A stretch of DNA of 64,000 bases. Origin: an uncultured Bacilli bacterium. Lineage in GTDB: Bacteria > Bacillota_I > Bacilli_A > RF39 > UBA660. Position numbers and translations under genes: made by a program. The notes beneath the pieces were generated by a model. It was not told the origin of the DNA. It saw only the letters and a program-made list of their open reading frames with translations, and ran no database searches. Below, one piece after another: positions 1,449-62,960 of this stretch; position 1 is the stretch's first letter, and every line of letters starts with the position of its first letter. The DNA lies in assembly GCA_934182615.1 (NCBI GenBank), contig CAKPRO010000008.1, positions 7,157 to 71,156 on the forward strand, in the 5' to 3' direction.

Positions 1449-1566
1449 TTATAAGTTTTATTTTTTAGATAGTAGTGAAAAGAAATTATATCACTGCCCG
1501 TTTAGGACGTTTGGAACAGGATATTTAATATCATTATCCTTAGTGATACTAGTTCTTTTCTTTCTT

Positions 1567-1670
1567 TTAGGTATTCACTGTGAATATAATAGATATGGAT
1601 GATATTCATTTCTAGACTATAGGCTAGAAATGACATGAAATGACCTTGGCATTTCATGAAAGGTGAAAGA
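1567..1670 (+). repeat. Double-hairpin intergenic repeat, copy A (forward type)
   Basis: Box ttcactgtgaa at 1574-1584. H1 is tcatttctag/ctagaaatga (1606-1633) with loop actatagg. H2 is catgaaatg/catttcatg (1634-1658) with loop accttgg. Confidence 0.8.
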
Positions 1671-5222: not shown

Positions 5223-5279
5223 CACTCTAAGCTATAATCTTAGAGTGTTGTTGTTAGCCTAAAGAGAGTCTAACAACAA
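5223..5279 (-). repeat. Double-hairpin intergenic repeat, copy F (reverse type)
   Basis: cactctaag/cttagagtg (loop ctataat) and ttgttgttag/ctaacaacaa (loop cctaaagagagt). It lies directly after the ltaS-like terminator. Confidence 0.7.
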
Positions 5280-5528
5280 GATATCAACCATATTTATTAT
5301 ATTTGGGTTAATACTTTTTTGATAAAGAGAGGGTATAATTATCTTTTTTAAATATATCATAATAGTGTATTTTAAAAAAATAATCTTAAAATAGCGATTA
5401 TTATTTAAATATTTGTGAAAAAATCACAAAAATAGCAAAAATAAGTGTACTTTTTGATTATTTTAATTAATAAAAGATATGTACTTTAGAGATAGTTTTT
5501 AGTATAATAGTTATTAGGTGATATTAGT

Positions 5529-7703
5529 ATGTATGTAGAAGTATTAACACAAATTAGTGCTAAAGCAGTAGATCAGTATTATGTATATTCAGTACCAGAA
5601 GTATTTAGAGATAATATTAAGATTGGTATTAGAGTTAGAATACCTTTTGGTAAGATGGAATTAGAAGGATTTGTTATGAATATTCTTAATGATACTGATT
5701 ATGATAAGAGTAAGATTAAAGATATTAGTGATGTAGTAGATGATAGGCCAGTACTTAATAAAGAGATGCTTCTACTGGGTAAATATATGAGTAAGCATTT
5801 ATTATGTTCACTTGTTAGTGCTTATCAAGTAATGCTTCCTAAAGCTTTAAAGGCTAAAGTTAATACTAATATTAAAATTAAATATAATAAATATTTAAGA
5901 AGAACTAAGAGTATTGAAGAGATAGATAAATATATTAGTAGTTGTAGGTATGAAGGACAAGTTAATTTACTTTGTAAGTTAAAAGAGGGAGATGTTCTTA
6001 TTACTAAGATGTCTAGTACGATTAATACGATTATTAAGAATGGATTAGGGGAAATATATTTAGAAGAAGATAAAAGATATGCTTATACAGGAATAAGTGA
6101 TTATAAGAGGGTAGTACTAAATGAAGAACAAGAGAGGGCTAAAGATATAGTAGTTAATTCATTTGGAGAGGCTAATACTTATTTATTATATGGAGTTACT
6201 GGTTCTGGTAAAACAGAAGTATATATGAGTATTATTGAAGATGCTTTAAAGTTAGGTAAAGAAGCGATTATGTTAGTACCAGAAATTAGTTTAACTCCTC
6301 AAGTAGTAGGAAAGTTTATATCTAGATTTGGTGATGTAGTAGCGGTATTACATTCTAAATTATCTGATACTGAGAGATATGATGAATATAGAAAGATAAC
6401 TGATGGAGAAGCTAAGATTGTTATTGGTACAAGAAGTGCTATCTTTGTTCCTTTTAATAATATTGGAGTTATTATAATAGACGAAGAACATACGGGTAGT
6501 TATAAACAAGAGAATCATCCTAGGTATAATGCTAAAGATATTGCTATTCTTAGAAGTAAATATCATAAATGTCCTGTAGTTATGGGAAGTGCTACTCCTA
6601 GTTTGGAGTCTTTTGCTAGAGCAGGTAATAAAGTATATAAGTTATTAGTATTATCTAAAAGACCTAGTAGTAGTACAATGCCTAATGTTGAGATTATTGA
6701 TATGAAAGAAGAAGTTAAGAAAGGTAATTTTATTTTATCTGATACTTTGAAGAATAAGATTAAAGAAAAACTAGATAGACAGGAACAGAGTATTATTTTA
6801 CTTAACAGAAGAGGATACTCTAGTGTTATTAGCTGCAGGGAATGTGGTTATACTGAGAAGTGTCCTAAGTGTGATGTTACTTATACTTATCATAAGACAA
6901 GTAATAATTTAAAATGCCACTACTGCGGTACTGCTAAAGTACCTAGTAAGGTATGTCCTAAATGTGGTGGTAACTTAAGAGATTTTGGACTTGGTACTGA
7001 GAAATTAGAAGAAGAATTAAATAAATTATTTAAAGCAAGAATAGTTAGAATGGATGTTGATACTACTAGTAAAAAAGGAGAACATCAGAAGATTATTGAT
7101 GACTTTGGAGAACATAAATATGATATTTTAATTGGTACACAGATGATTGCTAAGGGACTTGATTTTCCACTTGTTACTTTAGTAGGAGTAGTATCAGTAG
7201 ATTCTTCACTTATGGCTCCAGATTTTAGAGCTAGTGAAAATACTTTTCAGTTACTTTCGCAAGTAGCAGGAAGAGCGGGCAGAAGTACTTCAAAGGGAGA
7301 AGTTATTATTCAAACTTATAATCCTGATCATTATAGTATTATGCTAGCTAAAGATCATGATTATTTAAAATTTTATAAGGAAGAAATGAGTATTAGAAAG
7401 ATGCTTAAATATCCTCCATACTATTATTTAACATTAGTTAGTATATCTTCAAGAGATTATGAAGGAGGATTTAAAGAGGCTAATAAGATAGGTAATTATT
7501 TAAGAAGTAAACTTGGTAATTCAATTATACTTGGCCCTACTACTAGTAGTGCATTTAAGATAAATAATATTTATCATTATCAGATTATTATTAAATATCA
7601 AAAAGAAGATAATTTAATTAATACTTTAAATTTTATTATTGATATGTATAAAAATAATAATAAGATAGATGTAGAAGTAGATTTTAATCCAATTAGAGTA
7701 TAA
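5529..7703 (+). CDS. priA: Primosomal protein N' (replication restart helicase)
   Basis: Walker A GVTGSGKTEVY, DEEH box, and Cys-rich zinc motifs CRECGY..CPKCD / CHYCG..CPKCG. Confidence 0.95.
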   Translation: MYVEVLTQISAKAVDQYYVYSVPEVFRDNIKIGIRVRIPFGKMELEGFVMNILNDTDYDKSKIKDISDVVDDRPVLNKEMLLLGKYMSKHLLCSLVSAYQVMLPKALKAKVNTNIKIKYNKYLRRTKSIEEIDKYISSCRYEGQVNLLCKLKEGDVLITKMSSTINTIIKNGLGEIYLEEDKRYAYTGISDYKRVVLNEEQERAKDIVVNSFGEANTYLLYGVTGSGKTEVYMSIIEDALKLGKEAIMLVPEISLTPQVVGKFISRFGDVVAVLHSKLSDTERYDEYRKITDGEAKIVIGTRSAIFVPFNNIGVIIIDEEHTGSYKQENHPRYNAKDIAILRSKYHKCPVVMGSATPSLESFARAGNKVYKLLVLSKRPSSSTMPNVEIIDMKEEVKKGNFILSDTLKNKIKEKLDRQEQSIILLNRRGYSSVISCRECGYTEKCPKCDVTYTYHKTSNNLKCHYCGTAKVPSKVCPKCGGNLRDFGLGTEKLEEELNKLFKARIVRMDVDTTSKKGEHQKIIDDFGEHKYDILIGTQMIAKGLDFPLVTLVGVVSVDSSLMAPDFRASENTFQLLSQVAGRAGRSTSKGEVIIQTYNPDHYSIMLAKDHDYLKFYKEEMSIRKMLKYPPYYYLTLVSISSRDYEGGFKEANKIGNYLRSKLGNSIILGPTTSSAFKINNIYHYQIIIKYQKEDNLINTLNFIIDMYKNNNKIDVEVDFNPIRV

Positions 7704-7773: not shown

Positions 7774-8613
7774 CTATTTTGTTATATCATAAAATTCTTT
7801 TGGTATATCACTAGTAAATATCATTAGCTTATTTGTAAGGGGATTAATTATTTCTAGTTTGTTAGCATGTAGTGCTAATCTATTTAGAGAATTATCTCTA
7901 CTGTGGTAGCGGCTATCTCCAAGGATGGGATGATTTATATCATACATATGACATCTTATTTGATTTCTTCTTCCGGTAGATATTAATATTCTTAGCAGAG
8001 AGTATTTATTGTTATATTTTATTCTTTCATAATCTGTTATAGAAAATAGGCCATCTTTGTTTTTTGATGAATATACTTGAAGAGTTTTAGACATTTTTAA
8101 ATATGATTCAATATGACCATGAGAATTAGTTATGCCTTCAACAACCGCAGTGTATTCTCTCTTTTTAGTTAAGTTATTCCAATTTTCTTGGTATAATTTT
8201 TGTATCTTTTGATTTTTAGCAAACATTATTACTCCAGATGTATCATAGTCTAATCTATGTATTACGAATACTTTTTTGTTTTCTTTTTTTAAATAGTTAG
8301 ATACTTCACGATATAACGTTTTTTCTTTTTCTTTTTCGTTTGATATTGTTAATATTTTAGTTGGTTTATCTATAACAATAATATCATTATCTTCATATAT
8401 TATTTTTAGTGTAAAAGTGTTTTCTTTGATGCTTTTACCTATAGTTATAATATCATTTTTATGGACGATATAGTTATATTGGGTTACTGTTTTATTGTTT
8501 ACATATATACATTTATTCTTTAGTAAAGTTTTAATATTATTTTTTGATTTATTTAAGTTTTCTCTTAAATAATTATATATTTCAGCATCATATTCTACTA
8601 TTATTTTATTCAT
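7774..8613 (-). CDS. RluA-family 23S rRNA pseudouridine synthase (RluD-like, with S4 domain)
   Basis: HRLDYDTSGVIMFAK catalytic motif and RNQIRCHM. ATG 8613 sits 8 nt after GGAAG. The GTG at 8622 chosen by the ORF track abuts the RBS. Confidence 0.85.
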   Translation of the reverse strand: MNKIIVEYDAEIYNYLRENLNKSKNNIKTLLKNKCIYVNNKTVTQYNYIVHKNDIITIGKSIKENTFTLKIIYEDNDIIVIDKPTKILTISNEKEKEKTLYREVSNYLKKENKKVFVIHRLDYDTSGVIMFAKNQKIQKLYQENWNNLTKKREYTAVVEGITNSHGHIESYLKMSKTLQVYSSKNKDGLFSITDYERIKYNNKYSLLRILISTGRRNQIRCHMYDINHPILGDSRYHSRDNSLNRLALHANKLEIINPLTNKLMIFTSDIPKEFYDITK

Positions 8614-16636: not shown

Positions 16637-17416
16637 ATGAAAAAGATTGATGATATAAGTTTTTTTAGACAATTGTTTTTGGAACTTAAGAAAAATGGTG
16701 TTGAAGAATGTGATGTTGTAGAACTTAGTAAGAAATTGTATCCTTATTTTGAAAGTAAAGAATATAATAAATTATTTTCATTAAGTTCTAGTAAAATACA
16801 AAGTAGAGTAGTGATTAATAATATGCTCGAATATTTTACTAAGCGTTCTAAAGAATTACTTTATAGTGGAAATAGTAGAGTATTTGAATTAAATCCTAGA
16901 GACAATGTAGAAATTATTAGTAGAATGCAGTTAGATGTTATTAGATCTTTAGCGGATACTTTAACTATTATTAAGAGTGTTGAAGATAAATATAATGTTA
17001 AAATATATAATTTTAATCCTGCTTTAAATTATAATTTATTAAATGCTAGAGGTAAATATTTGAATTTAAATCAAAGATTGGTATCTGATGCTGATAGTAG
17101 TAAGAAAAAGATTACTATGATAGATACTTTATCTTTATATGAATGTCCAATTGATGATGCATTTTGTAGTTTTGAAGATGGCGTTGGTATAGATATTAAG
17201 ATACCTAGTAGTGCTAGTTATGTTATAGTACATAGTTATAGTAGAACTTTAAAGGGTGAATATACTGATAGTAGAATTTATACTAAAGAGACTGCTGTTG
17301 ATAAGCTTAATGAGATGGCTCTAGTAGGAGAAGATTCAATGAGGGAGTTTTTGGATGATTTAAATATGAATGATGTTAAAAGTGCTCCTAAAGTTTTGGT
17401 TAGAAAATTAAAATAA
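16637..17416 (+). CDS. Hypothetical protein (259 aa), no motif recognised
   Basis: Long ORF with RBS aggagg, its own terminator (about 17440-17475), and coding-like composition. Confidence 0.6.
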   Translation: MKKIDDISFFRQLFLELKKNGVEECDVVELSKKLYPYFESKEYNKLFSLSSSKIQSRVVINNMLEYFTKRSKELLYSGNSRVFELNPRDNVEIISRMQLDVIRSLADTLTIIKSVEDKYNVKIYNFNPALNYNLLNARGKYLNLNQRLVSDADSSKKKITMIDTLSLYECPIDDAFCSFEDGVGIDIKIPSSASYVIVHSYSRTLKGEYTDSRIYTKETAVDKLNEMALVGEDSMREFLDDLNMNDVKSAPKVLVRKLK

Positions 17417-17631
17417 TGATTAGTAAATATTTGTTTGTAAGAGAAAAAGTTAACTAGTAGTTTTTTCTCTTTTTAATTGCTTTATTTATAAGGAATTATA
17501 TTTAAAATACACGAACAATTAACTTGTATATTAAAATTAAAAAATTGTGAAAAATTAAAAAAATAGGAAACGGTGATTTTTATAAAATAAGAAAAAATAA
17601 AAAAATAATTGACATATAATATGGCACCGTC

Positions 17632-17647
17632 ACACTATATAAAGCCT
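17632..17647. promoter_or_regulatory. Candidate NrdR box (distal)
   Basis: ACACTATATAAAGCCT matches 13 of 16 positions of the remembered consensus acaCwAtATaTwGtgt. Confidence 0.3.
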
Positions 17648-17792
17648 TTAAATATAAGCAATTATGTGATATAGGATACAAAAATAGTAAATTAATAAAA
17701 AATAGAAAAAATTGAAAAAGAGAAAAATATAAAAAATAAAAAAAGTAAAAAAACAGAAAAATGTAAAAAATAAAAAATACGAACAAAAAGTA

Positions 17793-17825
17793 TTGACAAA
17801 GAACTTTCTAGACTATATAATGGTA
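17793..17825 (+). promoter_or_regulatory. nrdD promoter with an overlapping weaker NrdR-like box
   Basis: TTGACA (17793-17798), 17-nt spacer, TATAAT (17816-17821). AGACTATATAATGGTA (17810-17825) matches 11 of 16 positions of the NrdR consensus. Confidence 0.5.
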
Positions 17826-17848
17826 TCTGTAAGGTAGGAGGAAGAAGT

Positions 17849-20146
17849 ATGGTTGAAACTGAAGAAAAGTTAGAAACTATTGAAGTAGTTAAAAGAAATG
17901 GCAAGAAAGTAGAGTTCGATGGAACTAAAGTTGCTCTTGCTATTAAGAAAGGCTTTGATAGTATTTTAATTGAAGAAGATGAAAAAAAATATAGTGAGAA
18001 AGATATTCAAAAAGTATATCAAGCAGTTATTAAGAAGATAGCTAAAGAATATTTACCACTAGGAAAAATAAAAATAGAGGAAGTTCAAGACTTGATTGAA
18101 GATATGCTAAAAAAATATGATTATATTGATGTATATGAATCATTTTCAGAATATCGTCAAAGAAGAGCAGCAGCTCGTATAGCGTTTAGAGATGACAAGA
18201 TACAAGCTAAGCTGCAGAAGAGTATTGAAGGACTTGGACTTAAGTCTGCAAATGAAGAAGATAGCAAAAGAGAGAATGCCAATATTGATGGTAATTCTGC
18301 AATGGGTACTATGTTACAATTTGGTAGTACTATATCAAGAGTATTTACTGAGACATATTTAATGAAAAAGAAATTTGCAGAGGCTCATGATAATGGTGAT
18401 ATTCATATTCATGATATGGACTTTGAAGCTATGGGTACTACTACTTGTATGCAAATAGATTTGAATAAGTTATTTAAAGGTGGTTTTTCTACTGGACATG
18501 GACATCTTAGAGAACCTAAAGATATTATGAGTTATTCAGCACTAGCAGCAATAGCTATCCAATCTAATCAAAATGATCAACACGGAGGGCAATCAATACC
18601 AGCATTTGACTATTATTTAGCACCTGGTGTACTTAAAACATTTAAAAAGATGTTTAAACAAGCAGTATATGAATTATTAGATTTTACTGATTTTATTAGT
18701 TTTATAAATATGGATAGAGTAGAGAAAGAAATTGATAAGTTATCTAGTATTGACTTAGATATTACTATATTTGAACCTATTTATAAAGAGAGTACTGAAG
18801 TAAAGAGAATCTTTGAAAAAGCTTATGAAACAGCTTATAAGAAAACAGATAGACAAACATATCAAGCAATGGAAGCATTCGTTCATAATCTAAACACAAT
18901 GCATTCAAGAGCAGGAGCACAAGTACCGTTTTCTAGTATTAATTTTGGTACTGATACATCACCTGAAGGTAGAATGGTTATTAAGAATTTCTTATTATCT
19001 ATTGATGCTGGGCTTGGTAAGAATGAAACTCCAATATTCCCAATATCAATATTTAAAGTTAAGAAAGGTGTAAACTATGATCCAGAGGATCCGAACTATG
19101 ATTTATTTAAATTATCATGTAAAGTATCTTCAAAGAGATTATTCCCTAACTTCTCATTTATGGATTCGTCATTTAATAAACCTTATTATAAGGGAGACTA
19201 TAATACTGAAGTAGGATACATGGGATGTAGAACTAGAGTAATTGGTAATGTTGTAGACGAAGATAAGGCTGTTACTCCTGGTAGAGGTAATTTATCATTT
19301 ACTTCAATTAACTTACCTAGACTTGGTATTAAACATGGTATTGTAAGAAATGATGAGACTGATATGAAAGGCTTCTACGAAGAACTAGGAGAACTTATGG
19401 ATTTAGTTAAAGATCAATTACTTGAAAGATTTGAAATTCAATGTAATAAGAGACTTTATAATTTCCCATTCTTATTAGGACAGGGAGTATGGATTGATTC
19501 AGATAAGTTAAAACCTAATGATAGATTAAGAAAGATACTTAAACATGGTACTTTATCAATTGGTTTTATTGGTCTTGCTGAATGTCTTAAGGCTTTAATT
19601 GGTAAACATCATGGTGAGAGTGATGAGGCTCAAAAACTAGGACTTGAGATTATTGAATTTATGAGAAATAGATGTGATGAGTATGCTAAAGAATATAAGT
19701 TAAACTTTACTTTACTTGCTACTCCAGCAGAAGGTTTATCGGGTAGATTTATTAATATAGATAAGGCTGTATATGGTAAGATTAAGGGCGTTACTGATAG
19801 AGAATACTATACTAATTCATTCCATGTACCAGTATATTATAATATATCAATAGTAAATAAAATTAAGAAGGAAGGTCCATATCATAAATATACTAATGCT
19901 GGTCATATTAGTTATATTGAGTTAGATGGTGATACTACGAATAACTTAGAGGCATTTGAAAAGATAATTAGATTAATGTATGAAAATGATATGGGATATG
20001 CTGCAATTAACCATCCAGTAGATAGAGATCCAGTATGTGGTTATGTTGGTGTAATCGGAGATGTTTGCCCTGGATGTGGTAGAAAAGCATATGAAGGTGT
20101 TCCAATAGAAAGGGTAAATGACTATAAAAATAGTTGTAATTGTTAA
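17849..20146 (+). CDS. nrdD: Anaerobic ribonucleoside-triphosphate reductase, large part (ATP-cone to zinc ribbon, no glycyl-radical motif)
   Basis: N-terminal ATP-cone (VVKRNGKKVEFD), class III RNR core, and C-terminal CGY...CPGCG zinc ribbon. It stops before any RxxGY glycyl-radical motif. Confidence 0.9.
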   Translation: MVETEEKLETIEVVKRNGKKVEFDGTKVALAIKKGFDSILIEEDEKKYSEKDIQKVYQAVIKKIAKEYLPLGKIKIEEVQDLIEDMLKKYDYIDVYESFSEYRQRRAAARIAFRDDKIQAKLQKSIEGLGLKSANEEDSKRENANIDGNSAMGTMLQFGSTISRVFTETYLMKKKFAEAHDNGDIHIHDMDFEAMGTTTCMQIDLNKLFKGGFSTGHGHLREPKDIMSYSALAAIAIQSNQNDQHGGQSIPAFDYYLAPGVLKTFKKMFKQAVYELLDFTDFISFINMDRVEKEIDKLSSIDLDITIFEPIYKESTEVKRIFEKAYETAYKKTDRQTYQAMEAFVHNLNTMHSRAGAQVPFSSINFGTDTSPEGRMVIKNFLLSIDAGLGKNETPIFPISIFKVKKGVNYDPEDPNYDLFKLSCKVSSKRLFPNFSFMDSSFNKPYYKGDYNTEVGYMGCRTRVIGNVVDEDKAVTPGRGNLSFTSINLPRLGIKHGIVRNDETDMKGFYEELGELMDLVKDQLLERFEIQCNKRLYNFPFLLGQGVWIDSDKLKPNDRLRKILKHGTLSIGFIGLAECLKALIGKHHGESDEAQKLGLEIIEFMRNRCDEYAKEYKLNFTLLATPAEGLSGRFINIDKAVYGKIKGVTDREYYTNSFHVPVYYNISIVNKIKKEGPYHKYTNAGHISYIELDGDTTNNLEAFEKIIRLMYENDMGYAAINHPVDRDPVCGYVGVIGDVCPGCGRKAYEGVPIERVNDYKNSCNC

Positions 20147-20911: not shown

Positions 20912-20981
20912 CCACTTCAACCTTAAATAAATTTAAGTTTTCCGTGGTATAATAGAGCCTATATTAATAGTCTCTATTATA
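20912..20981 (-). repeat. Double-hairpin intergenic repeat, copy H (reverse type)
   Basis: An imperfect hairpin spans 20912-20947. It is followed by tataatagag/ctctattata (20948-20981) with loop cctatattaatagt. Confidence 0.55.
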
Positions 20982-21060: not shown

Positions 21061-21332
21061 AGGTAACACCAATAAGGTGCGTCTCTCCATTTTTCCCAAG
21101 TATCTCTGGGAGGAAGGAGTGATTCTGTATGAAAAAGTTTTCTTTCATCCTCAGGGGGTTAGGAGATTTGAGTAATGGATTACGTTGTAGCACTTGCTAT
21201 GATAATCTTTTTCTTTGTTGTCTATATAGATAATAGAAAAAACAGGAGATAAAAAAAGATGGCACCCAGGGGGTGCCTCTATAAAATACTTATGGAGAGA
21301 ATACCTTTTGAAGCTAGGTGTTACCCATTTTT
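21061..21332 (+). other. Structured toxin mRNA with long-range 5'-3' pairing
   Basis: Positions 21062-21090 (ggtaacacc..aaggt..tctctccat) pair with 21292-21325 (atggagaga..acctt..ggtgttacc). A T5 run follows. Confidence 0.55.
21175..21252 (+). CDS. Type I toxin candidate: 25-aa hydrophobic peptide MDYVVALAMIIFFFVVYIDNRKNRR
   Basis: AGGAG at 21161-21165 lies 9 nt upstream of the ATG. The peptide is one TM helix plus a basic tail. An overlapping 34-aa ORF (21129-21233) also has a strong RBS. Confidence 0.55.
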   Translation: MDYVVALAMIIFFFVVYIDNRKNRR

Positions 21333-21623: not shown

Positions 21624-21640
21624 GTATGGAGGTATACATT

Positions 21641-23155
21641 ATGAGAAAAAAGAAGAAATTTATATTAATATTAGTAATGGTATTAGTTTTAATGAGTTAT
21701 TTATATCAAAGTTATGCTTTATCTAGCATTATTACTGATAGTAATGATACATATGTTGTTAATGTTAATAATAATTCTAGTATTGAGGTTCCTGCGAATG
21801 GATTTAAGACTATATATTATAAAGTTTTAAATACTAATAAAGGGACAGTTAAATATGGTATTGGATATTCTGGTACTAGTGTTAAGGTTAAGGTGTATAA
21901 CGATTCTCAAGATGAAGAGACAGGCCTTATAGAGTATGGTAAAAGTAAATTTGTAAAATTAAAACTTATTAATAATAATGCTACTAGTAGTACTATTAAG
22001 TTAAGTACAATACTAGGTTATGAGAATGGTGGAAATTTAATAGTGCCTAGTGGTTATACTTTAGTTACTGAAAAAATAAATGAAAATAATGTTATGAAGT
22101 CTTCTGAAGATGCAACTTCTGCTAGCACGGCTTTTTTAAGAAGTTCATTAGTTAGAAGTAGTATTAATAGTATTACTTTTACTAATGATAACATTGTTTC
22201 TACTGATGTTGTAGGTAGTATGGATATATCACAAAATAGTGATGGTGGTGTAATGATGTGGTGGTATAATTCTTCTACAAGTGGAAAATATGATGTATAT
22301 ATAGGTAGTGAAAGTGGTAAGGTTGTTATTAAAGATTGTTATAAATTGTTTTCTTGGCTTACTAGTTTGACTTCTCTTGATTTAACATATCTTGATACTT
22401 CTAGTGTTACTAATATGAGTTATATGTTTTTTAATACTAGTTCAATTAATGAGTTAAATTTATCGGGTATTGATACTAGTAAGGTTACTAATATGAAAGC
22501 TATGTTTTCGGGATGTATAGCTTTAACTAAACTTAATGTTAGTAGTTTTAATACTGTGAATGTTACATCAATGGTTGATATGTTTGCTAATTGTCAAAAT
22601 ATTACAGAGATTGATCTTTCTAATTTTAAAACTCCTAATGTTACTGATATAAGTGGAATGTTTTATCAGAATTATCTTTTAGAAAATATTGATATAAGTA
22701 ATTTTGATACTAGTAGAGTTACTAATATGAGTAATTTATTTTGTAGTTGTAAGAAATTAACTTCTTTAAATTTAAGTAATTTTAACACTAGTAATGTTAC
22801 TAACTTTTATTATATGTTTAATGAGTGTAATGCTCTTACTAGTGTTTATTTAAATAGTTTTGATACTAGTTCTGCGACTAATATGGTTGGTATGTTTAGA
22901 AAGTGTAGTGCTTTAAGGAAAATAGATTTAAGTAGTTTTGATACAAGTAAAGTAACAAGCTCTTACTATATGTTTTTGAATTGTACGGCTGCTACTGAAA
23001 TTGATATTAGAAAGGCTGACTTTTCTAGTGTAACTAATTATAATCTTATGTTTTCTGGTGTTCCTAATGGTACTAAGATATACGTTAAAAATGATACTGT
23101 TAAATCTTGGATTACTAGTAAATTTTCTAATTTGACAGGAGTTACTACTGTTTAA
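21641..23155 (+). CDS. DUF285/BspA-like leucine-rich-repeat surface protein (paralog 1)
   Basis: Signal peptide, then about 25-aa repeats of the form LS.FDTS.VTNM..MF..C..L..(I/L)D. GGAGG lies 8 nt before ATG 21641. Confidence 0.8.
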   Translation: MRKKKKFILILVMVLVLMSYLYQSYALSSIITDSNDTYVVNVNNNSSIEVPANGFKTIYYKVLNTNKGTVKYGIGYSGTSVKVKVYNDSQDEETGLIEYGKSKFVKLKLINNNATSSTIKLSTILGYENGGNLIVPSGYTLVTEKINENNVMKSSEDATSASTAFLRSSLVRSSINSITFTNDNIVSTDVVGSMDISQNSDGGVMMWWYNSSTSGKYDVYIGSESGKVVIKDCYKLFSWLTSLTSLDLTYLDTSSVTNMSYMFFNTSSINELNLSGIDTSKVTNMKAMFSGCIALTKLNVSSFNTVNVTSMVDMFANCQNITEIDLSNFKTPNVTDISGMFYQNYLLENIDISNFDTSRVTNMSNLFCSCKKLTSLNLSNFNTSNVTNFYYMFNECNALTSVYLNSFDTSSATNMVGMFRKCSALRKIDLSSFDTSKVTSSYYMFLNCTAATEIDIRKADFSSVTNYNLMFSGVPNGTKIYVKNDTVKSWITSKFSNLTGVTTV

Positions 23156-23312
23156 TATAATAATTTGATACTAGATTTAATATATTTAAAGTTATTAGCA
23201 ATGAAGAATTTAATGGTTATTATGATAAAGTTAAATATTTTAAACAATTAGCTATGTCTTTAAATACTAATTAGGAAGATACTAGTTATCTTTCTTTTTA
23301 TTTGGAGTTATC

Positions 23313-23415
23313 TTAGTTAGAAAGTACTTCACTGTGAATATGATATCTTAATGTTATTCATTACTAGACTTTAGGCTAGGAATGACATTCTAAGATGTAA
23401 AGCTTAGAATGAATA
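23313..23415 (+). repeat. Double-hairpin intergenic repeat, copy B (forward type)
   Basis: Box ttcactgtgaa at 23328-23338. H1 spans 23358-23385 (one A-G mismatch, loop actttagg). H2 is cattctaag/cttagaatg (23386-23411). Confidence 0.8.
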
Positions 23416-23457: not shown

Positions 23458-23498
23458 ATAGTAAAGTTTATAGATGTAGAAGGAGGTAAATTATAAAC

Positions 23499-23633
23499 TA
23501 GCGCCTGAACCATATATGGTTGACGAGGAGAGTAATTATCGAATATTCGGCGGATGTTACTCTGGGTTATATACTCATTAGATTATTATAAAAAACAAAA
23601 TTAATATTGTAACAAGATAATAATCATATATAA
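23499..23633 (+). ncRNA. glmS ribozyme
   Basis: Core AGCGCCTGAACC...GGTTGACGAGGAGAG...TATCGAATATTCGGCGGATG matches the conserved glmS ribozyme core. It lies directly upstream of glmS. Confidence 0.88.
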
Positions 23634-23647
23634 GAAAGAGGTAAATT

Positions 23648-27780: not shown

Positions 27781-27867
27781 TAAAATATTATCTTGCTTTT
27801 TATATGAAGATAAAATTAGGTATAAAAAAATTCTTAAGCGTTAGGCTTAAGAATTAATTATTATAAG

Positions 27868-36887: not shown

Positions 36888-38540
36888 ATGACAAATAAAG
36901 ATTTAGCAGATTTAATATTTCCTAATGTTACTAAGACAGTAGAAGATTATGAAGAAATGTATCCTAATAGGGATTTACCTGAAGGGGCATATGTTACTAG
37001 ATTTGCTCCTAGTCCTACTGGTTATATGCATATTGGTAATTTTATGAGTACTGTAATTAATTATAGTCTTGCTAGAAATACTAATGGGGTATTCTTTTTG
37101 AGAAATGAGGATACAGATAAAGCTAGAGAGATAGAGGATGCTGTAGATAAAATTATGGGTACTTTAAAAGAATATAATATGATACCTGATGAATATGAAT
37201 ATAATGGTCAAGTAGTAGGAAATTATGGTCCTTATATTCAGAGTGAGAGAATAGAAATATATCATGCTTTTATTAAGAGATTGATTGAAATGGGAAGAGC
37301 ATATCCTTGTTTTTGTACTAAAGATACTCTTGATGATTTGAGAAAGAATCAAGAAGAGAAGAAAATGAGAACAGGGTATTATGGTAGATTTGCTAAATGT
37401 CGTAATATTAGTACGGAAGAAGCTATTACTAGAATTAAGAATGGTGAACCATTTGTAATTAGGTTTAAATCAATGGGTGATCCAGATAAGAAGTTTGTTT
37501 TTGAGGATTTGGTTAAGGGTAGAATTGAATTTCCTGAGAATGATCAAGATGCGGTTATTATGAAGTCGGATAATTTACTTCCTACTTATCATTTTGCTCA
37601 TTTGGTTGATGATCATTTAATGCATACTACTCATGTTGTTAGAGGTGAGGAATGGTTGTCTTCAGTACCTTTACATGTTGAGTTATTTAAGGCGTTTGGT
37701 TATAAGATACCTAAATATATTCATATACCACTTATTATGAAACAAGATGGTGATATTAGAAGAAAGATTAGTAAGAGAAAAGATCCGGAAGCTAGTATGA
37801 GTTTTTATAAAGAAAAGGGATATCCTAGTGAAGCTGTTATTGAGTCTATTATGACGATTGCTAATTCTAATTATGAGGAGTGGCATACTGCTAATCATGA
37901 TAAGAGTTATTTGGATTTTAAGTTTTCTCCTAAAAAGATGTCTTCTAGTGGTGCTTTATTTGATTTGGAAAAACTAAATAATATTTCTAGAAATTATATT
38001 AGTAAAATGAGTAAAGATGCTGTTTATGATGGTTTACTTGAATGGACTAAGGATTATGATAGGGATTTTTATGATTTGATTACTAAGTATGAGGAATATA
38101 CTAAGAATATATTAAATATTGAGAGAGAGCAAAAGAAACCGAGAAAGGATTATGCTAGTTATAGTGAGATTAAAGATCAGATATTTTATATGTATGATGA
38201 ACTTTATAATCCTACTACTTATGAATGGGGAAATATTACTGATAAGGAAGAGATAATTAAAATACTTAATACTTATATTGATAGTTATTTTGATGTATCT
38301 GATAAGGAGATATGGTTTAATAAGGTAAAAGAGTTAACTGATAGTTTGGGTTATGCTAGTAATATGAAGGAATATAAGAATGATCCTAGTAAGTATAAGG
38401 GTAGTGTAGCGGATATTTCTACGGTACTTAGAGTAGCTTTAACTAGTAAGAGTATGACTCCTGATCTATATGAAATTATGAGATTATTAGGTAGGGATAG
38501 AATTATTAATAGAATTAAGAATATTGAAGAAGAACTTTAG
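36888..38540 (+). CDS. gltX: Glutamate--tRNA ligase family protein (550 aa)
   Basis: RFAPSPTGYMHIGN (HIGH region) and KISKRK (KMSKS region). It has a long C-terminal extension. Confidence 0.85.
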   Translation: MTNKDLADLIFPNVTKTVEDYEEMYPNRDLPEGAYVTRFAPSPTGYMHIGNFMSTVINYSLARNTNGVFFLRNEDTDKAREIEDAVDKIMGTLKEYNMIPDEYEYNGQVVGNYGPYIQSERIEIYHAFIKRLIEMGRAYPCFCTKDTLDDLRKNQEEKKMRTGYYGRFAKCRNISTEEAITRIKNGEPFVIRFKSMGDPDKKFVFEDLVKGRIEFPENDQDAVIMKSDNLLPTYHFAHLVDDHLMHTTHVVRGEEWLSSVPLHVELFKAFGYKIPKYIHIPLIMKQDGDIRRKISKRKDPEASMSFYKEKGYPSEAVIESIMTIANSNYEEWHTANHDKSYLDFKFSPKKMSSSGALFDLEKLNNISRNYISKMSKDAVYDGLLEWTKDYDRDFYDLITKYEEYTKNILNIEREQKKPRKDYASYSEIKDQIFYMYDELYNPTTYEWGNITDKEEIIKILNTYIDSYFDVSDKEIWFNKVKELTDSLGYASNMKEYKNDPSKYKGSVADISTVLRVALTSKSMTPDLYEIMRLLGRDRIINRIKNIEEEL

Positions 38541-38554
38541 GTTCTTTTTCTTTT

Positions 38555-38608
38555 ACTTCTCAAGCTTGTAATCTTGAGAAGTGTAAGAAAGCCTAGAGTC
38601 TTTCTTAC
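38555..38608 (-). repeat. Double-hairpin intergenic repeat, copy G (reverse type)
   Basis: acttctcaag/cttgagaagt (loop cttgtaat) and gtaagaaag/ctttcttac (loop cctagagt). It lies directly after the gltX terminator. Confidence 0.7.
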
Positions 38609-38670
38609 AAAAAATTAATATTTTTATGTATTTGTGGTATAATTGTATATAGATAGAAAGGATGATTTAA

Positions 38671-42852: not shown

Positions 42853-44967
42853 ATGAACAAGTATAAGTTATATATGATATTTGGTATAGTATTATTAGGT
42901 TTATCTATTACTGGTAGTTTAGCATATTATATATGGAGTAGTAGTACTACTAGTATATCAGGTAATTTATGTTTACCAGAGATATATTTTACTGGAGGAG
43001 CTACGATTAATGGTAAATTAAAACCAGTATCTAGTAAAGAAGAAGGATTAATTAAAGAAGTAGAAGTAAACTTACATAAAACTTGTAATAATGATACTGC
43101 AGTAATGAATCTATATTTAAGTTTAGATTTATTACCTACAGCCTTACAAGAAAATACTTTTGTCTATGAATTATATAATGGTAGTAATGAATTAATAACT
43201 AGTGGTAACTTTAGTGATAAGAAACAAGGTGATACTATAACACTAGCTAATAATGAAATAGTAACTAGTAATGTATCTATATATACTTTATATATTTATA
43301 TAGATGGTAATAGAGATAATCCTATTACTATGAGTAATCAAAACTTTAGATTTAATATTTATGGAGAAGGAACTGGAGCTATATATAAAGAAAATGTAAT
43401 CCAAAATGAAACTACAACTCCCTCTAGTTCATCATCAACATTTCTAAATACTGAAGTACTTAGAAATCAAATAGAATCTATAACAATAGAGAAAAATAAT
43501 ATAGTACCAAGTGATGCAAAATATAGTAAAGATATATCATCAAAACAAGATGGAAGTGTAATGTTATGGTATACAGATAAAGATAATAATAGTTTATATG
43601 AAGTATCAATAGGTAGTGAGAATGGTTCACTTGAAGCTAACACTAATGGTAGTGGTATGTTCTCTTACTTAGATAATGTAGATATTCTAGATTTAACTGG
43701 TTTAAATACTAGTAATATGACTAGTATGAGTAAAATGTTTTACAATAGTACTAGTCTTAAAAACATAGATGTATCAGGATTCGATACATCAAAAGTAGTA
43801 AATATGGATTATATGTTTTTTGGATGTAATAATTTGAAAAATTTAAATGTGTTTAATTTTAATACTAGCAAAGTTAGAAATATGACCGGTATGTTTGAAG
43901 ATTGTTCTAATATAGAAAAACTTGATTTAAGTAATTTTGATACAGCAAATGTTTTATATATGGGTACTCCGGGATATGGATATGGAGGAATGTTTCAAGG
44001 ATGTACAAATTTAAAAAGTATTAATCTAAGTAGTTTTGATACAAGTAAAGTAATTTTGATGGGTAATATGTTTAGAAACTGTAAATCACTTGAGAGTATA
44101 GATTTATCAAGTTTTAATACATCAAATGTGACAAATATGGCTAGTATTTTTCGGAACTGTAGTTCTATCAAAAAATTAAATTTGTCGAATTTCGACACAT
44201 CAACTGTAACTAGTATGGCTGATATGTTTAACGGCTGTTTAGTATTAAATAATCTCGATTTATCAAGTTTTAATACATCAAATGTAACTAGTATGTCTGG
44301 TATGTTTACATACTGTTCTAATATAGAAAAACTTGATTTAAGTAATTTTAATACATCAAATGTAACAAATATGACTTCTATGTTTAGAGGATGTAAATTA
44401 TTGACGAATTTAAATATTAGTAATTTTAACACTAGTAAAGTCACTAATATGTCATCTATGTTTTCTAGTTGCAAGTCACTTGAAAACTTGTCTTTATTAA
44501 ATTTTGATACATCAAATGTAACAAATATGAATAATATGTTTAATGATTGTAGTTCTCTTAAAATTGTTGATTTATCAAGTTTTGATACCAGCAAAGTAAC
44601 AATTATGGCTGGTATGTTTGCATACTGTACTGCAATTGAAGAACTTAATTTAACTAATTTTGATACATCAAATGTAACAACTATGGATAGCATGTTTTGC
44701 AATTGTAGTTCACTTAAAATTGTTGATTTATCAAGTTTTAATACATCAAATGTAACTGATATGGGATTAATGTTTAGAATGTGTGGTAAATTAAAAACAA
44801 TTTATGCTTCAAGTTTGTGGAATGTTAATAAGGTTGACGATTCTTTTCAGATGTTTTTTTGTTGTGGTTCCCTTGCTGGAAGAGTACCATTTGATAGTAG
44901 TAAAATAGATGTAAGTATGGCTAATTATACTAATGGATATTTAACATATAAAAAGAATACTAATTAG
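42853..44967 (+). CDS. DUF285/BspA-like LRR surface protein (paralog 2) with a TasA-signal family N-domain
   Basis: Signal ends TGSLAYYIW. The N-domain is homologous to the 27205 product. More than 15 LRR units follow (LSSF(N/D)TSNVT.M..MF..C..L). Confidence 0.85.
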   Translation: MNKYKLYMIFGIVLLGLSITGSLAYYIWSSSTTSISGNLCLPEIYFTGGATINGKLKPVSSKEEGLIKEVEVNLHKTCNNDTAVMNLYLSLDLLPTALQENTFVYELYNGSNELITSGNFSDKKQGDTITLANNEIVTSNVSIYTLYIYIDGNRDNPITMSNQNFRFNIYGEGTGAIYKENVIQNETTTPSSSSSTFLNTEVLRNQIESITIEKNNIVPSDAKYSKDISSKQDGSVMLWYTDKDNNSLYEVSIGSENGSLEANTNGSGMFSYLDNVDILDLTGLNTSNMTSMSKMFYNSTSLKNIDVSGFDTSKVVNMDYMFFGCNNLKNLNVFNFNTSKVRNMTGMFEDCSNIEKLDLSNFDTANVLYMGTPGYGYGGMFQGCTNLKSINLSSFDTSKVILMGNMFRNCKSLESIDLSSFNTSNVTNMASIFRNCSSIKKLNLSNFDTSTVTSMADMFNGCLVLNNLDLSSFNTSNVTSMSGMFTYCSNIEKLDLSNFNTSNVTNMTSMFRGCKLLTNLNISNFNTSKVTNMSSMFSSCKSLENLSLLNFDTSNVTNMNNMFNDCSSLKIVDLSSFDTSKVTIMAGMFAYCTAIEELNLTNFDTSNVTTMDSMFCNCSSLKIVDLSSFNTSNVTDMGLMFRMCGKLKTIYASSLWNVNKVDDSFQMFFCCGSLAGRVPFDSSKIDVSMANYTNGYLTYKKNTN

Positions 44968-44992
44968 AGAGATAAGTAATTGTCTCTCTTTT

Positions 44993-45097
44993 CAGTTAAG
45001 AGGTACTTCACCCCGAATATAATATCTTATGACTATTCATTCCTAGACCTTAGACTAGGAATGACATGAAATGATCTTGGCATTTCATGAAAGGTGA
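44993..45097 (+). repeat. Double-hairpin intergenic repeat, copy C (forward type)
   Basis: H1 is tcattcctag/ctaggaatga (45037-45064) with loop accttaga. H2 is catgaaatg/catttcatg (45065-45089). The tail is aaaggtga, as in copy A. Confidence 0.8.
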
Positions 45098-45161
45098 TAA
45101 ATATATCTTTTCAAAAATATAAAAATGTATTATAATTAAATAAATAGAGGAGATATAGATT

Positions 45162-57242: not shown

Positions 57243-57326
57243 TGATAAAATACCTTCACAATATTTGTTATATTGAATACAATAATATGACAGATATATA
57301 ACACCCTATTGGGAAGTGAGGTATTT

Positions 57327-57533
57327 ATGAATAAAGGTATTTTAACTAAAAGAGAAAAAGAAGTATTTTTACTACTAATAGAGAATAAGACTACTAAAGA
57401 GATAGCGGATAATTTGAATATTAGTGAAAAGACTGTTAGAAATCATATTTCTAATACTATGCAGAAATTATCTGTTAAGGGTAGAGCTCAGGCTGTAGTA
57501 GAGTTAATTAGATTAGGAGAAATTACTTTATAG
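57327..57533 (+). CDS. gerE: Sporulation transcription regulator GerE (LuxR-type HTH)
   Basis: LTKREKEVFLLLIENKTTKEIADNLNISEKTVRNHISNTMQKLSVKGRAQAVVELIRLGE is nearly colinear with B. subtilis GerE. Confidence 0.88.
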   Translation: MNKGILTKREKEVFLLLIENKTTKEIADNLNISEKTVRNHISNTMQKLSVKGRAQAVVELIRLGEITL

Positions 57534-57560
57534 CACTTATTATAGTGCTTTTTCTTTTTG

Positions 57561-57619
57561 CCCCTTCATCCTATGGTATTCCGGGGTATGAGAAGGCCTA
57601 AGGTCCTTCTCATAAGGGG
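57561..57619 (-). repeat. Hairpin repeat, copy D' (reverse type)
   Basis: tatgagaagg/ccttctcata (57587-57614) with loop cctaaggt, nested in the outer pairing cccctt/aagggg. Confidence 0.6.
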
Positions 57620-57640
57620 ATATTTATTTGGGATTATCTT

Positions 57641-57745
57641 GGTTAGTAAGTTTACATCGTGGATATGATATCTTATAATCATTTACTTATAGACTATGAT
57701 AATAGGCTATAAGTAATATGAAATGACTTAGGCATTTCATAATAT
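57641..57745 (+). repeat. Double-hairpin intergenic repeat, copy D (forward type)
   Basis: H1 is tacttatag/ctataagta with loop actatgataatagg. H2 is tatgaaatg/catttcata with loop acttagg. Confidence 0.75.
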
Positions 57746-57840
57746 AAAACATAATAAAAATATGTAAAAAAGCATATATTTTAATATAATTATATCTTTT
57801 TTTTAATTATTTTGATATAATGAAGTAGGAGAGTGATATA

Positions 57841-61173: not shown

Positions 61174-62832
61174 ATGAGGAGTAAAAAAATATTGAGTTTA
61201 TTTATGTTTATGATGGGAATCTTTTTTATCTTTTCATCAAAAACACTAGCTTATGAAATAGGGGTATATTATAATGGCTCTGAAAGTAACAAAAATGAAA
61301 ATTATACAGAAGTTACTGGACTAGGGGGAACTAATACATTTGTTATGCACGCTACTAAAGAAGATGGTAATGATATTAGCAGACTTGTATATTGCGGTGA
61401 TGCCACTAAAGGTAATCCAAGAATAGAAGAAAATGGATATGTTAATTGGAACTGTAGTCCACTGTCTACTAACGCAGATCAACTAAGATATATATTTGCT
61501 AATGGTTATCAATATAAGTCCACTATGAGCGATAGTGATAAGAATGAATTCTTTAAAACGCAATTAGCAGTATGGTATTATACAGATAGTGGAAAAATAT
61601 TTAATAACTATGGTAAAGATGCTAATGGTAATTTAGATGGTACTTATAATGGTAGTAGTGATAGTACTGCTGCTGGTATTGCTAAATTAGTAAAAGACGC
61701 TCAAAACTATGCAAATAATTCAACACCATCTGTAAGCGTTTCTATTGACGGTGGTGATAAGACAATGTCTGTTACTAGTGATGGTAAATATTATATAAGT
61801 AAAGCAATTACTTTAGGTGGTAGTAACATAAGTGGTAACATAACAGTTACTATCTCAGGACCTAATGGAGCATTTGTTACATCTGATAAAAATGCGACAA
61901 CAGGTAGTAGTTCTTTTGCAAATGGTAGCAAAGTTTATATTAAAGTGCCTACTGGTTCAGTTGGTGATAAAGCTTTTTCAAAACTAACTGCTAGTGGTAG
62001 TGGAAAAGTATATACTGGTGGTGTATATAGATGTACACACGTTACTGGTAGTGGTAATGTACAGGATATAATTGATTATGTACCAAGCGAAGAAGCAAAA
62101 ACCGCTACTGACGATATTACAGTAACTGCTACTAAAAATATGGTATATATATCAAAAACAGATATAACTGGTTCTAAAGAAATAGAAGGTGCAGAATTAG
62201 TTATTAAACAAGGAGATACTAAAATTGTTAGTTGGACTTCAACAACAACACCATATGGATATTATTTAGCTCCAGGAACATATACTTTAGAAGAAACTAT
62301 TGCTCCTAAAGGATATATTAAAAGTACTTCAAAGATAACTTTTGTTGTAAAAGATAATGGTAAAGTAACAGTAGATGGTAAAGAAGTAACATCAGTAGTT
62401 ATGAAAAATGAACCAATAACAGTAATTATATCTAAAAAGAGTATTAATGGTAAAACGGAACTTCCTGGTGCAAAGTTAAAAATAACTGACAAAGATGGTA
62501 ATATTTTAAAAGATATAGAAGGTAATGATCTAGAGTGGACTTCTACTACTAAAGAAAAAAGTTTTCATTTAGCACCTGGTACTTATTATTTAACAGAAAC
62601 TATTGCTCCAGATGGATACGAATTATCTGATACAACAATAGAATTTACAGTTACTGAAGATGGTAAAGTAAAAATGAATAAAAAGGATGTTGATGGTAAT
62701 TTAATTGTATTTACAAATACACCAGAAGCAACTGAAGTAAAAACAGGTAGTTTTATAATATATATAGTAATTATTGGTGCAGTAGCAGTAGGTTTAGTTA
62801 CTTACTATGTTATGAAAAAACAAGAGGCATAA
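61174..62832 (+). CDS. Surface adhesin with thioester (TQxA) domain and two SpaA/CnaB-type domains
   Basis: Signal peptide. VYCGD plus TQLAVWYY form the thioester pair. Two G.Y.L.ETIAP.GY modules follow. The C-terminal segment is EVKTG, a hydrophobic stretch, then KKQEA. Confidence 0.75.
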   Translation: MRSKKILSLFMFMMGIFFIFSSKTLAYEIGVYYNGSESNKNENYTEVTGLGGTNTFVMHATKEDGNDISRLVYCGDATKGNPRIEENGYVNWNCSPLSTNADQLRYIFANGYQYKSTMSDSDKNEFFKTQLAVWYYTDSGKIFNNYGKDANGNLDGTYNGSSDSTAAGIAKLVKDAQNYANNSTPSVSVSIDGGDKTMSVTSDGKYYISKAITLGGSNISGNITVTISGPNGAFVTSDKNATTGSSSFANGSKVYIKVPTGSVGDKAFSKLTASGSGKVYTGGVYRCTHVTGSGNVQDIIDYVPSEEAKTATDDITVTATKNMVYISKTDITGSKEIEGAELVIKQGDTKIVSWTSTTTPYGYYLAPGTYTLEETIAPKGYIKSTSKITFVVKDNGKVTVDGKEVTSVVMKNEPITVIISKKSINGKTELPGAKLKITDKDGNILKDIEGNDLEWTSTTKEKSFHLAPGTYYLTETIAPDGYELSDTTIEFTVTEDGKVKMNKKDVDGNLIVFTNTPEATEVKTGSFIIYIVIIGAVAVGLVTYYVMKKQEA

Positions 62833-62864
62833 GGAATTATGCTTCTTTTAATTGGAAAAATATA

Positions 62865-62960
62865 GGTTAGAAAGTATTTCACCGTGAATATAATATCTTA
62901 TAATTATTTATGACTAGACTATAGGCTAGTCATAACCAAGAAAGACTAAGGCTTTCTTGG
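62865..62960 (+). repeat. Double-hairpin intergenic repeat, copy E (forward type)
   Basis: Box ttcaccgtgaa at 62878-62888. H1 is tatgactag/ctagtcata (62909-62934) with loop actatagg. H2 is ccaagaaag/ctttcttgg (62936-62960) with loop actaagg. Confidence 0.8.

Follow-up and report, generated by a model that had tools for sequence, protein, structure and literature searches.

A family of double-hairpin intergenic repeats with covarying stems in a narrow clade of uncultured gut Bacilli

The intergenic regions of a 64,000-nucleotide stretch of DNA from an uncultured Bacilli bacterium (the window) were found to carry nine copies of a repeated element whose core is a pair of abutting hairpins on one strand. 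The stems differ in sequence from copy to copy while remaining paired, and the tip of each hairpin is fixed. The explanation that we favour, with moderate confidence only, since no enzyme was found and the ends of the element are not defined, is a non-autonomous, REP/MITE-like intergenic repeat family of a narrow clade of small-genome gut Bacilli, which would be read as folded single-stranded DNA.

Copies in the window and anatomy of the repeated unit

At 27% G+C, the window shows strong positive GC skew, and almost all of its genes lie on the forward strand. It contains housekeeping genes (tgt, priA, nrdD/G, glmS, leuS, murG, murB and rplS) together with genes for DUF285 and SpaA-type surface proteins; no transposase genes were found in it. 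Exact matches to its proteins were located on human gut metagenome contigs, including a 75.8-kb Hadza contig.

All nine copies listed in the initial annotation were present where it had placed them, seven of them (A to E on the forward strand, F and G on the reverse strand) as canonical double hairpins and two, D' and H, as variants (Table 1). All nine are intergenic, and together they make up approximately 2% of the window. A hairpin scan showed that in each of the seven canonical copies the H1 stem is 10 bp and the H2 stem 9 bp, the two abutting without a linker. A covariance model (CM) built from five copies (A, C, D, E and F) recovered these five as well as B and G, with E-values from 6e-18 to 4e-7; there was no comparable match elsewhere in the window, where H and D' scored weakly, and no match in 715 kb of unrelated genomes. 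Strict abutting hairpin pairs numbered five in the window, compared to 0.06 expected from first-order Markov simulations, and each copy folded into two hairpins (z-scores from -2.2 to -6.1). These results confirmed that the double-hairpin observation is real and far above chance. D' and H represent a third type, in which an H1-type hairpin is followed by a stem with three purine•purine mismatches (5'-GGA/5'-GAA); the same variant occurs in two metagenome loci, L131 and L139. The H1-type hairpin of D' sits where the T0 terminator of copy D would be.

Table 1. Positions of the double-hairpin copies and their parts in the window
Copy	Positions	Strand	Parts	CM score (bits)
A	1545-1669	+	degenerate T0/T-run 1545-1568; arm variant 2 1569-1605; H1 1606-1633; H2 1634-1658; tail AAAGGTGAAAG 1659-1669	84.4
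B (full class I unit)	23274-23411	+	T0 terminator 23274-23301; spacer 23302-23314; arm 23315-23351; H1 23358-23385 (one A·G stem mismatch); H2 23386-23411	
C (subject of the initial annotation)	44966-45099	+	terminator 44966-44992; degenerate arm 44993-45030; H1 45037-45064; H2 45065-45089; tail AAAGGTGATA	80
D	57641-57741	+	arm 57641-57676; H1 57683-57716; H2 57717-57741	
E	62824-62960	+	terminator 62824-62849; spacer; arm 62865-62901; H1 62908-62935; H2 62936-62960	
F	5223-5314	-	H2 5223-5247; H1 5248-5279; arm variant 2 5280-5314	70.3
G (no recognisable arm)	38556-38609	-	H2 38556-38581; H1 38582-38609	39.7
D' (variant)	57561-57614	-	H1-type hairpin 57587-57614; GGA/GAA hairpin 57561-57586	
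H (variant)	20912-20981	-	H1-type hairpin with apical mini-helix 20948-20981; GGA/GAA hairpin 20912-20947	

When the regions 5' of many copies were aligned, their homology was seen to extend back to the upstream gene's stop codon, so that the whole module, at approximately 150 bases, is larger than had been described. The class I unit runs in the order T0, spacer, 36-nt arm, short linker, H1 and H2, followed in some subfamilies only by a tail, GAAAGGTA. T0 is a terminator with a T-run and a short hairpin, typically GAAGATAC-loop-GTATCTTC, and the spacer is constant in length (approximately 15 nt) and variable in sequence. Each copy had been said to lie just downstream of a gene's own terminator; in many copies that terminator is itself part of the repeated unit. 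The contexts of the copies vary: some follow T0, some lie inside a 3' UTR ahead of an old terminator, and others lie antisense, immediately after a T-run. In F, G and comparable copies elsewhere, the element adjoins the T-run of the upstream gene's terminator and lacks a canonical arm; G occupies the region from the terminator of an upstream tRNA-synthetase gene (36888-38540) to the next promoter. Copy B ends 16 nt 5' of a conserved glmS -35 box.

The arm, AGTTAGAAAGT-N7/8-GTGAATATRATATCTTAT, consists of two conserved blocks with a more variable segment of 7-8 nt between them, and includes a TATRAT box 13 nt 5' of H1. It had been described in forward copies, and A to E all carry it; the reverse copy F also has an arm variant. 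The metagenome loci described below were retrieved by an arm pattern, and arm conservation among them is therefore partly built in; among the window copies, which were found independently, the arm is near-perfect in B and E and clearly degenerate in A, C and D. RNAalifold analysis of 22 full copies predicted T0, H1 and H2 and nothing else, leaving the arm unstructured. The arm was accordingly rejected as a folded element, as it paired neither with itself nor with T0, and the left half of its TTCAC-N-GTGAA sequence changes without compensation. No solo arms were present in the window. The arm bears a possible resemblance to parS/NBS half-sites, a 7-1-7 operator and a DnaA box (TGTGAATAT vs TGTGGATAA).

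Several other features were noted beside the copies. The glmS ribozyme (Rfam RF00234, 87.4 bits) occupies 23489-23635 on the forward strand, with copy B just 5' of the promoter. Two paralogous genes for DUF285 surface proteins (21626-23155 and 42853-44967, forward) each have a class I element directly 3' of them; the second contains a hotspot of single nucleotide differences between strains (43137-43334), and in strain L003 the upstream neighbourhood is replaced by a gene for a 2662-aa protein. The 500 nt from copy A to tgt, including 1735-2100 on the forward strand, contain only short broken frames, the first being ATGAATCCTTATGATAAG at 1735, and from its sequence the 1735-2100 region could be what is left of a gene. 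A solo hairpin (27831-27853, forward; TTCTTAAG-CGTTAGG-CTTAAGAA) with an H2-like apex, but with C instead of the usual A as the 5' base, lies between the end of a gene and tRNA-Arg; this could be the relic of half an element or simply a terminator.

A second repeated intergenic module was present at 21062-21325 (forward) and in three other loci (L131, approximately 7250-7560; L104, approximately 1-170; L213, approximately 8440-8570, reverse), and it recurs beside double-hairpin elements in other loci. It contains an ORF for a hydrophobic 25-aa product, MDYVVALAMIIFFFVVYIDNRKNRR (21175-21252), which has no Pfam match and is bracketed by 9-nt inverted repeats, GGTAACACC (21062-21070) and GGTGTTACC (21317-21325). 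Judged by sequence, this module looks like a type I toxin mRNA with 5'-3' pairing.

Stem covariation, the fixed apex and the nature of the folded strand

An arm-pattern search retrieved 120 metagenome loci, and the CM applied to the first 100 gave 144 copies, 65 of them distinct. In these 65 copies from related gut metagenome contigs, 98.4% of the stem cells were paired, compared to 68.5% in shuffles and 35-44% in slid alignments, and 17 of the 19 stem pairs had changed on both sides; the observed percentage paired and covariation score were reached by none of 500 shuffles. A CM-fitted alignment favours structure, but the margin over the controls was very large and a model-free parse agreed, with 1486 of 1518 cells Watson-Crick paired. 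Pairing has thus been kept despite near-total turnover of stem sequence, as the initial annotation had claimed.

What had been described as conserved loops is really a fixed apex, which comprises a G-C closing pair, an A opposite G (or A), a C-G or U-A pair, and then either a loop of 3-4 nt or an extra helix of 3-4 bp that itself covaries (TAT/ATA, TAA/TTA, TTA/TAA, AAA/TTT and AATT/AATT). Among 80 distinct copies the 5' apex base was A in 79, the 3' base was G, or A in close variants, the inner pair was C-G or a covarying T-A, and the mismatch had become a Watson-Crick pair only once. In the window, H1 of copy D has an apical mini-helix (CUAU/AUAG), and the H1 apex of copy C has A•A where strain L002 has A•G. 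The shared build of the apex indicates that H1 and H2 are two versions of one type of unit. The AC...GG apex scores approximately 80 bits on one strand and 25 on the other, a strand-specific constraint that points to a folded single strand and agrees with the earlier proposal of selection on such a strand with sequence-specific loops. Together, these data established the anatomy of the element, the covariation of its stems, its strand specificity and its strict Watson-Crick pairing. The possibility that the stems serve as guides to nearby targets was rejected: 8-mers and 9-mers from the stem arms were no commoner within 1.5 kb than those from shuffled arms (23 vs 16, and 43 vs 50, of 170).

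Covariation could also be mutational in origin, with no selection, if template switching at quasi-palindromes during replication uses one arm to rewrite the other. Mutation by quasi-palindrome correction is well established, and both the strict Watson-Crick pairing and the many UA-to-AU and GC-to-CG flips that lack a wobble intermediate are consistent with it. However, this mechanism leaves the conserved apex bases, the fixed 10- and 9-bp stem lengths and the conserved arm unexplained, the purine•purine mismatch was corrected in that single copy out of 80, and unbiased arm conversion would not reduce stem polymorphism relative to the loops, as was observed (see below). We consider it a very improbable explanation.

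G·T wobble pairs were found in 15 of the 1518 cells of H1 and H2 (approximately 1%), each confined to single variants, whereas in the T0 terminators of 22 elements wobble pairs reached approximately 12% and were common to unrelated loci. The pairing of T0 is thus what an RNA hairpin would show, and that of H1 and H2 what a strict DNA palindrome would show, apart from a single protected mismatch. The near absence of G·U next to a terminator that contains it is the main reason for leaning towards a folded strand of DNA. It is not decisive, because A•G mismatches and GGA/GAA purine loops are also typical RNA motifs. The asymmetry between G·T (15) and A·C (3) cells was considered as a sign of strand preference and set aside: two of the three A·C cases lie in reverse copies, and the asymmetry may therefore follow the mutation bias of the genome. 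The orientation of the element cannot decide between the readings, since in these genomes it is completely tied to both the direction of the genes and the strand of replication.

A multi-copy small RNA or a cis-acting RNA element, with the arm as a possibly repressible promoter, is a possible but doubtful alternative. The TATRAT box would then be the -10 region and TTCAC-N-GTGAA the operator; the transcript would start a few nucleotides before H1, and its hairpins would give it a stable dumbbell at the 5' end for protein binding or RNA protection. The strand-specific structure, the purine•purine mismatches and the GGA/GAA internal-loop variant are as expected of such an RNA, but G·U is nearly missing although the adjoining RNA terminator tolerates it. 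The blocks of the unstructured arm are spaced like -35 and -10 regions; however, a consensus promoter scan of copy E did not call the arm on the forward strand, the best -35 candidate (TTAGAA, 15-16 nt away) is weak, and the reverse copies lack the canonical arm altogether. Forward transcripts may enter the downstream gene, and reverse ones would be antisense to the 3' end of the upstream gene. Arm-bearing copies share the orientation of the next gene in 24 of 25 cases, with the end of H2 40-160 nt before the start codon, but each of the downstream genes that were read (those of B, C, D, E and a few other loci) has its own TGnTAYAAT-type promoter 3' of the element, and the same genes in sister species are without it. 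An A-rich stretch and hairpin after some copies, such as the older terminator that follows copy D (57766-57804), could end a short RNA; a terminator is not consistently present after H2. The low polymorphism of resident stems (see below) is also consistent with an RNA, but some 200 copies per genome, by extrapolation, would be unprecedented for a small RNA family.

Distribution, gain and loss, and mosaicism

When a looser arm pattern was applied to a set of species-representative genomes, most matches were due to chance; the only true members were the uncultured gut 'Tenericutes/Bacilli' MAGs UMGS1739 and UMGS1185, several gut MAGs from Hadza and Nepal samples, the closed 1.46-Mb MAG CP091726.1, Firmicutes bacterium CAG:321 and Clostridium sp. 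CAG:302. This restricts the family to a narrow clade of Bacilli/'Tenericutes' MAGs from the gut, all uncultured and probably of the RF39 group. No copies were found in viral contigs, phage records or plasmids, and a phage, plasmid or virus origin was rejected, as none of these gave a match.

To compare orthologous sites, use was made of three sister species (L254-L256) whose MurG orthologues, at 87, 82 and 77% identity, lie on contigs syntenic with the window (fmt-ORF-murG-murB...SpaA-rplS). The CM gave one, zero and zero matches in 17, 21 and 21 kb of these contigs, compared to nine copies in the 64-kb window, and zero in 11 kb of a fourth relative with a different gene neighbourhood. At the sites of copies D, E and B the sister contigs have short, empty intergenic regions: the region before murG is 83 nt, copy E is missing between SpaA and rplS, where the gap upstream of rplS is 38 nt in L254 and 135 nt in the window, and the glmS -35 box follows directly after the terminator T-run in L254. 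In strains with the fmt-ORF-murG arrangement, copy D lies within approximately 240 extra nucleotides inserted in an A-run before the old terminator. This segment is bracketed by a 7-nt AAAAAAG direct repeat, one possible target duplication; the other filled and empty site pairs are too diverged to be judged in this respect.

The copies are also mosaic. Stems of H1 and H2 assort independently, with 27 H1 arms and 22 H2 arms in 34 combinations. Within the species, strain L131 and the window are arranged differently at murG and rplS, the breakpoints being in the spacer or arm, and after such rearrangement T0 keeps with the upstream gene and arm-H1-H2 with the downstream gene. Before murG, L131 has fmt and a 223-aa ORF where the window has a gene for a GerE-type regulator (57318-57533); in comparisons of window positions 57243-57840 with L131- and L145-type contigs the breakpoint fell at the spacer of the element, and L131 was without most of the H2 of copy D. 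Within the copy D arm there were three single nucleotide differences between strains in 25 nt, the rest of the intergenic region being identical, and strain L002 showed approximately 30 differences in 44953-45075 compared to approximately 50 in the other 4.9 kb examined. No two window copies are near-identical; there is thus no sign of a recent burst. These results established that copies are gained and lost at orthologous sites, that they are mosaic and that breakpoints fall within them. Gain and loss, recombination and partial homogenising characterise a repeat family and would not be expected of a cis-regulatory RNA that belongs to particular genes.

In eight sets of orthologous copies, drawn from many strains, there were 0.036 segregating sites per nucleotide in stems, 0.115 in loops, 0.139 in the linker and 0.198 in the spacer, a value that recombination may inflate; the arm value of 0.093 is biased by the way the loci were collected. 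The neighbouring promoter and gene start gave 0.049, similar to the stems. The lower polymorphism of stems than of loops and spacer suggests that resident copies are constrained in place and, unlike DNA left to decay freely, keep their stems. Four 'species' that share a pair of copies upstream of typA are approximately 97% identical and so cannot show selection.

Some of these observations would also suit a host 'intergenic cassette', made up of a terminator, a spacer and insulator, and hairpins that block exonucleases or absorb supercoiling. Duplication and homologous recombination would spread it along with its neighbours, above all variable genes for surface proteins, and no dedicated mobility enzyme would be needed. 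That homology starts at the stop codon, and sometimes reaches into the final codons of upstream genes that are paralogues (the DUF285 and '...DPYQL' families), is consistent with such a cassette, as are a remnant of upstream-gene homology in locus L213, the separate inheritance of T0 and arm-H1-H2 in rearranged strains, and the clustering of consensus-like differences in the arm, as gene conversion would give. However, copies adjoin unrelated housekeeping genes (glmS, murG, rplS, typA, fmt and priA) and their left flanks are unrelated; the kept apex motif, the exact stem lengths, the mismatch and the reverse copies are also left unexplained. A cassette of this kind appears improbable. For the repeat family that we favour, spread by transposition rather than by recombination alone would be expected.

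Just past the right end of the window, the contig L126 carries a gene for a large serine recombinase with Resolvase and Recombinase domains (16665-18719 of that contig, reverse), together with small ORFs of unknown function, downstream of a signal-peptidase gene. Other strains carry different genes there, which marks the site as a strain-specific island.

Comparison with known families and proposed mode of action

At the gathering threshold, Rfam 15 yielded only glmS and tRNAs in the whole window, and no Rfam family matched the element, in line with the initial annotation, which could not assign it to a known family. E-value searches with C, D/D' and E gave different sub-threshold hits each time, among them an IS605-orfB-II match (E = 3.8, opposite strand), and these were dismissed as chance. 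Two adjacent hairpins with covarying stems and conserved loops are also found in TwoAYGGAY, an Rfam family, and in ANTAR-type motifs, some of them from gut metagenomes; these differ in loop consensus, in stem lengths and in having few copies per genome.

The earlier view that the element does not look like simple copying of a MITE or REP unit was not supported, since gain and loss, reshuffling of H1 and H2, internal breakpoints and the site in the gap between terminator and promoter are all REP/BOX/Correia-like. Compensatory stem change has also been described for REPs. BOX, RUP and SPRITE of pneumococcus and Correia (CREE/NEMIS) of Neisseria are modular, composite, strain-variable intergenic repeats with stable stem-loops and possible promoter or terminator activity, and no enzyme is known to mobilise BOX. 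Those repeats are conserved in sequence, and none is known to combine a variable stem with a fixed apex; RUP and Correia have terminal inverted repeats and TA duplications. Here the arm and tail are not mutual inverted copies in the 22 aligned full copies, as MITE ends would be; the tail GAAAGGTA resembles the first arm block in direct orientation. Presence/absence polymorphism of the kind seen in MITEs was observed, D, E and B being missing at the syntenic sites. The textbook case of a site conserved in folded single-stranded structure rather than in sequence is the integron attC site, in which unpaired bases mark the active strand. It is a single long hairpin with RYYYAAC/GTTRRRY cores, is associated with promoterless cassettes and needs IntI, none of which applies here; the element has two separate hairpins and an arm that found no pairing partner in RNAalifold.

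On the basis of these comparisons, the element would appear to work most like REP/REPIN-RAYT systems and the ends of IS200/IS605, while being a member of neither. Like REPs, BIMEs and REPINs, it is a short, abundant, extragenic hairpin element found in both orientations and gained or lost between relatives, and its copies are many, short, imperfect palindromes. REPs are recognised as folded single-stranded DNA (PMC3479197, PMC6006769), and H1 is built like the REP 'long hairpin', which has a fully paired basal stem, a bulge of 1-3 nt and a second stem (PMC6006769). The REP tag, GTAG or GTGG 0-2 nt 5' of the stem (PMC6006769), is not seen here: the bases 5' of H1 are TAT, TGT, AGT and others, and H2 follows H1 directly. 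A REPIN consists of two REPs in inverted orientation (PMC3116915), whereas H1 and H2 differ from each other and stand in direct tandem orientation without a spacer. The stems here are rich in A and T and change between copies, an unstructured arm of 36 nt and in many copies a terminator are additional, the host belongs to the Bacilli/'Tenericutes' rather than the Proteobacteria, and no RAYT was found. IS200/IS605 ends carry subterminal single-stranded hairpins on one strand, two of which are bound at once by a dimeric enzyme, and these elements have no inverted repeats, make no duplication and are linked to the lagging-strand template (PMC6006769). Unlike IS200/IS605 and the ORF-less PATEs, the present hairpins abut with no cargo, no TnpA was found in the sequence searched, and neither a conserved cleavage tetranucleotide nor a guide relation was identified. 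A motif scan of the window and of related loci (1.4 Mb, redundant), which is weak evidence, gave no HUH...Y motif of the IS200/RAYT type. Flanking of a cargo gene was considered and rejected: an inverted pair of elements approximately 1.1 kb apart in L139 encloses ordinary rplM-rpsI.

In the reading that we favour, the functional core would be the two abutting hairpins on one strand, with stems free in sequence and fixed in length (10 and 9 bp), each ending in a G-C closing pair, a purine•purine mismatch, a C-G pair and a short loop or mini-helix. The hairpins would form in DNA that has become single-stranded, as on the lagging-strand template. Because they abut they could stack base to base, and we infer that the resulting pseudo-symmetric dumbbell of approximately 20 bp, its apex motifs about two helical turns apart, would be read by a dimeric structure-specific protein. 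The unstructured arm would be a sequence-specific cis site that travels with the hairpins. Copies would find a 'safe' place downstream of a terminator and ahead of the next promoter, and may later be lost, exchanged or homogenised by recombination with one another. Several results count against this reading: neither a transposase nor terminal inverted repeats were found, a single possible target duplication was seen, the window copies show no recent burst, resident stems vary little, and the purine mismatches and the TATRAT box of the arm would suit an RNA.

More tentatively, and with a low probability in our estimation, the hairpin pair could be the site of an undescribed system: either a novel Bacilli single-stranded DNA mobility machinery with no IS200/RAYT-type enzyme, or a set of promoter-equipped 'dumbbell' RNAs of approximately 60 nt, of which a genome of less than 2 Mb might, by extrapolation, hold a couple of hundred copies. 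A dimeric protein would then recognise the purine•purine mismatch that lies two pairs below each loop and gauge how long the stem is.

Structured repeats of the REP type are known mainly from Proteobacteria, and the present family, which departs from several features that define REP, REPIN, MITE and IS200-derived elements, occurs in an uncultured, genome-reduced gut lineage. With its strong covariation and near absence of G·U, the element could easily be mistaken for a structured RNA, and the G·U contrast with an adjoining terminator provides a simple test of RNA versus DNA constraint on covarying hairpins. The fixed apex and the 36-nt arm are possible bait for a binding protein. The element marks points of strain rearrangement and gene swapping, and the share of the window that it takes up is notable for a genome thought to be small and gene-dense.
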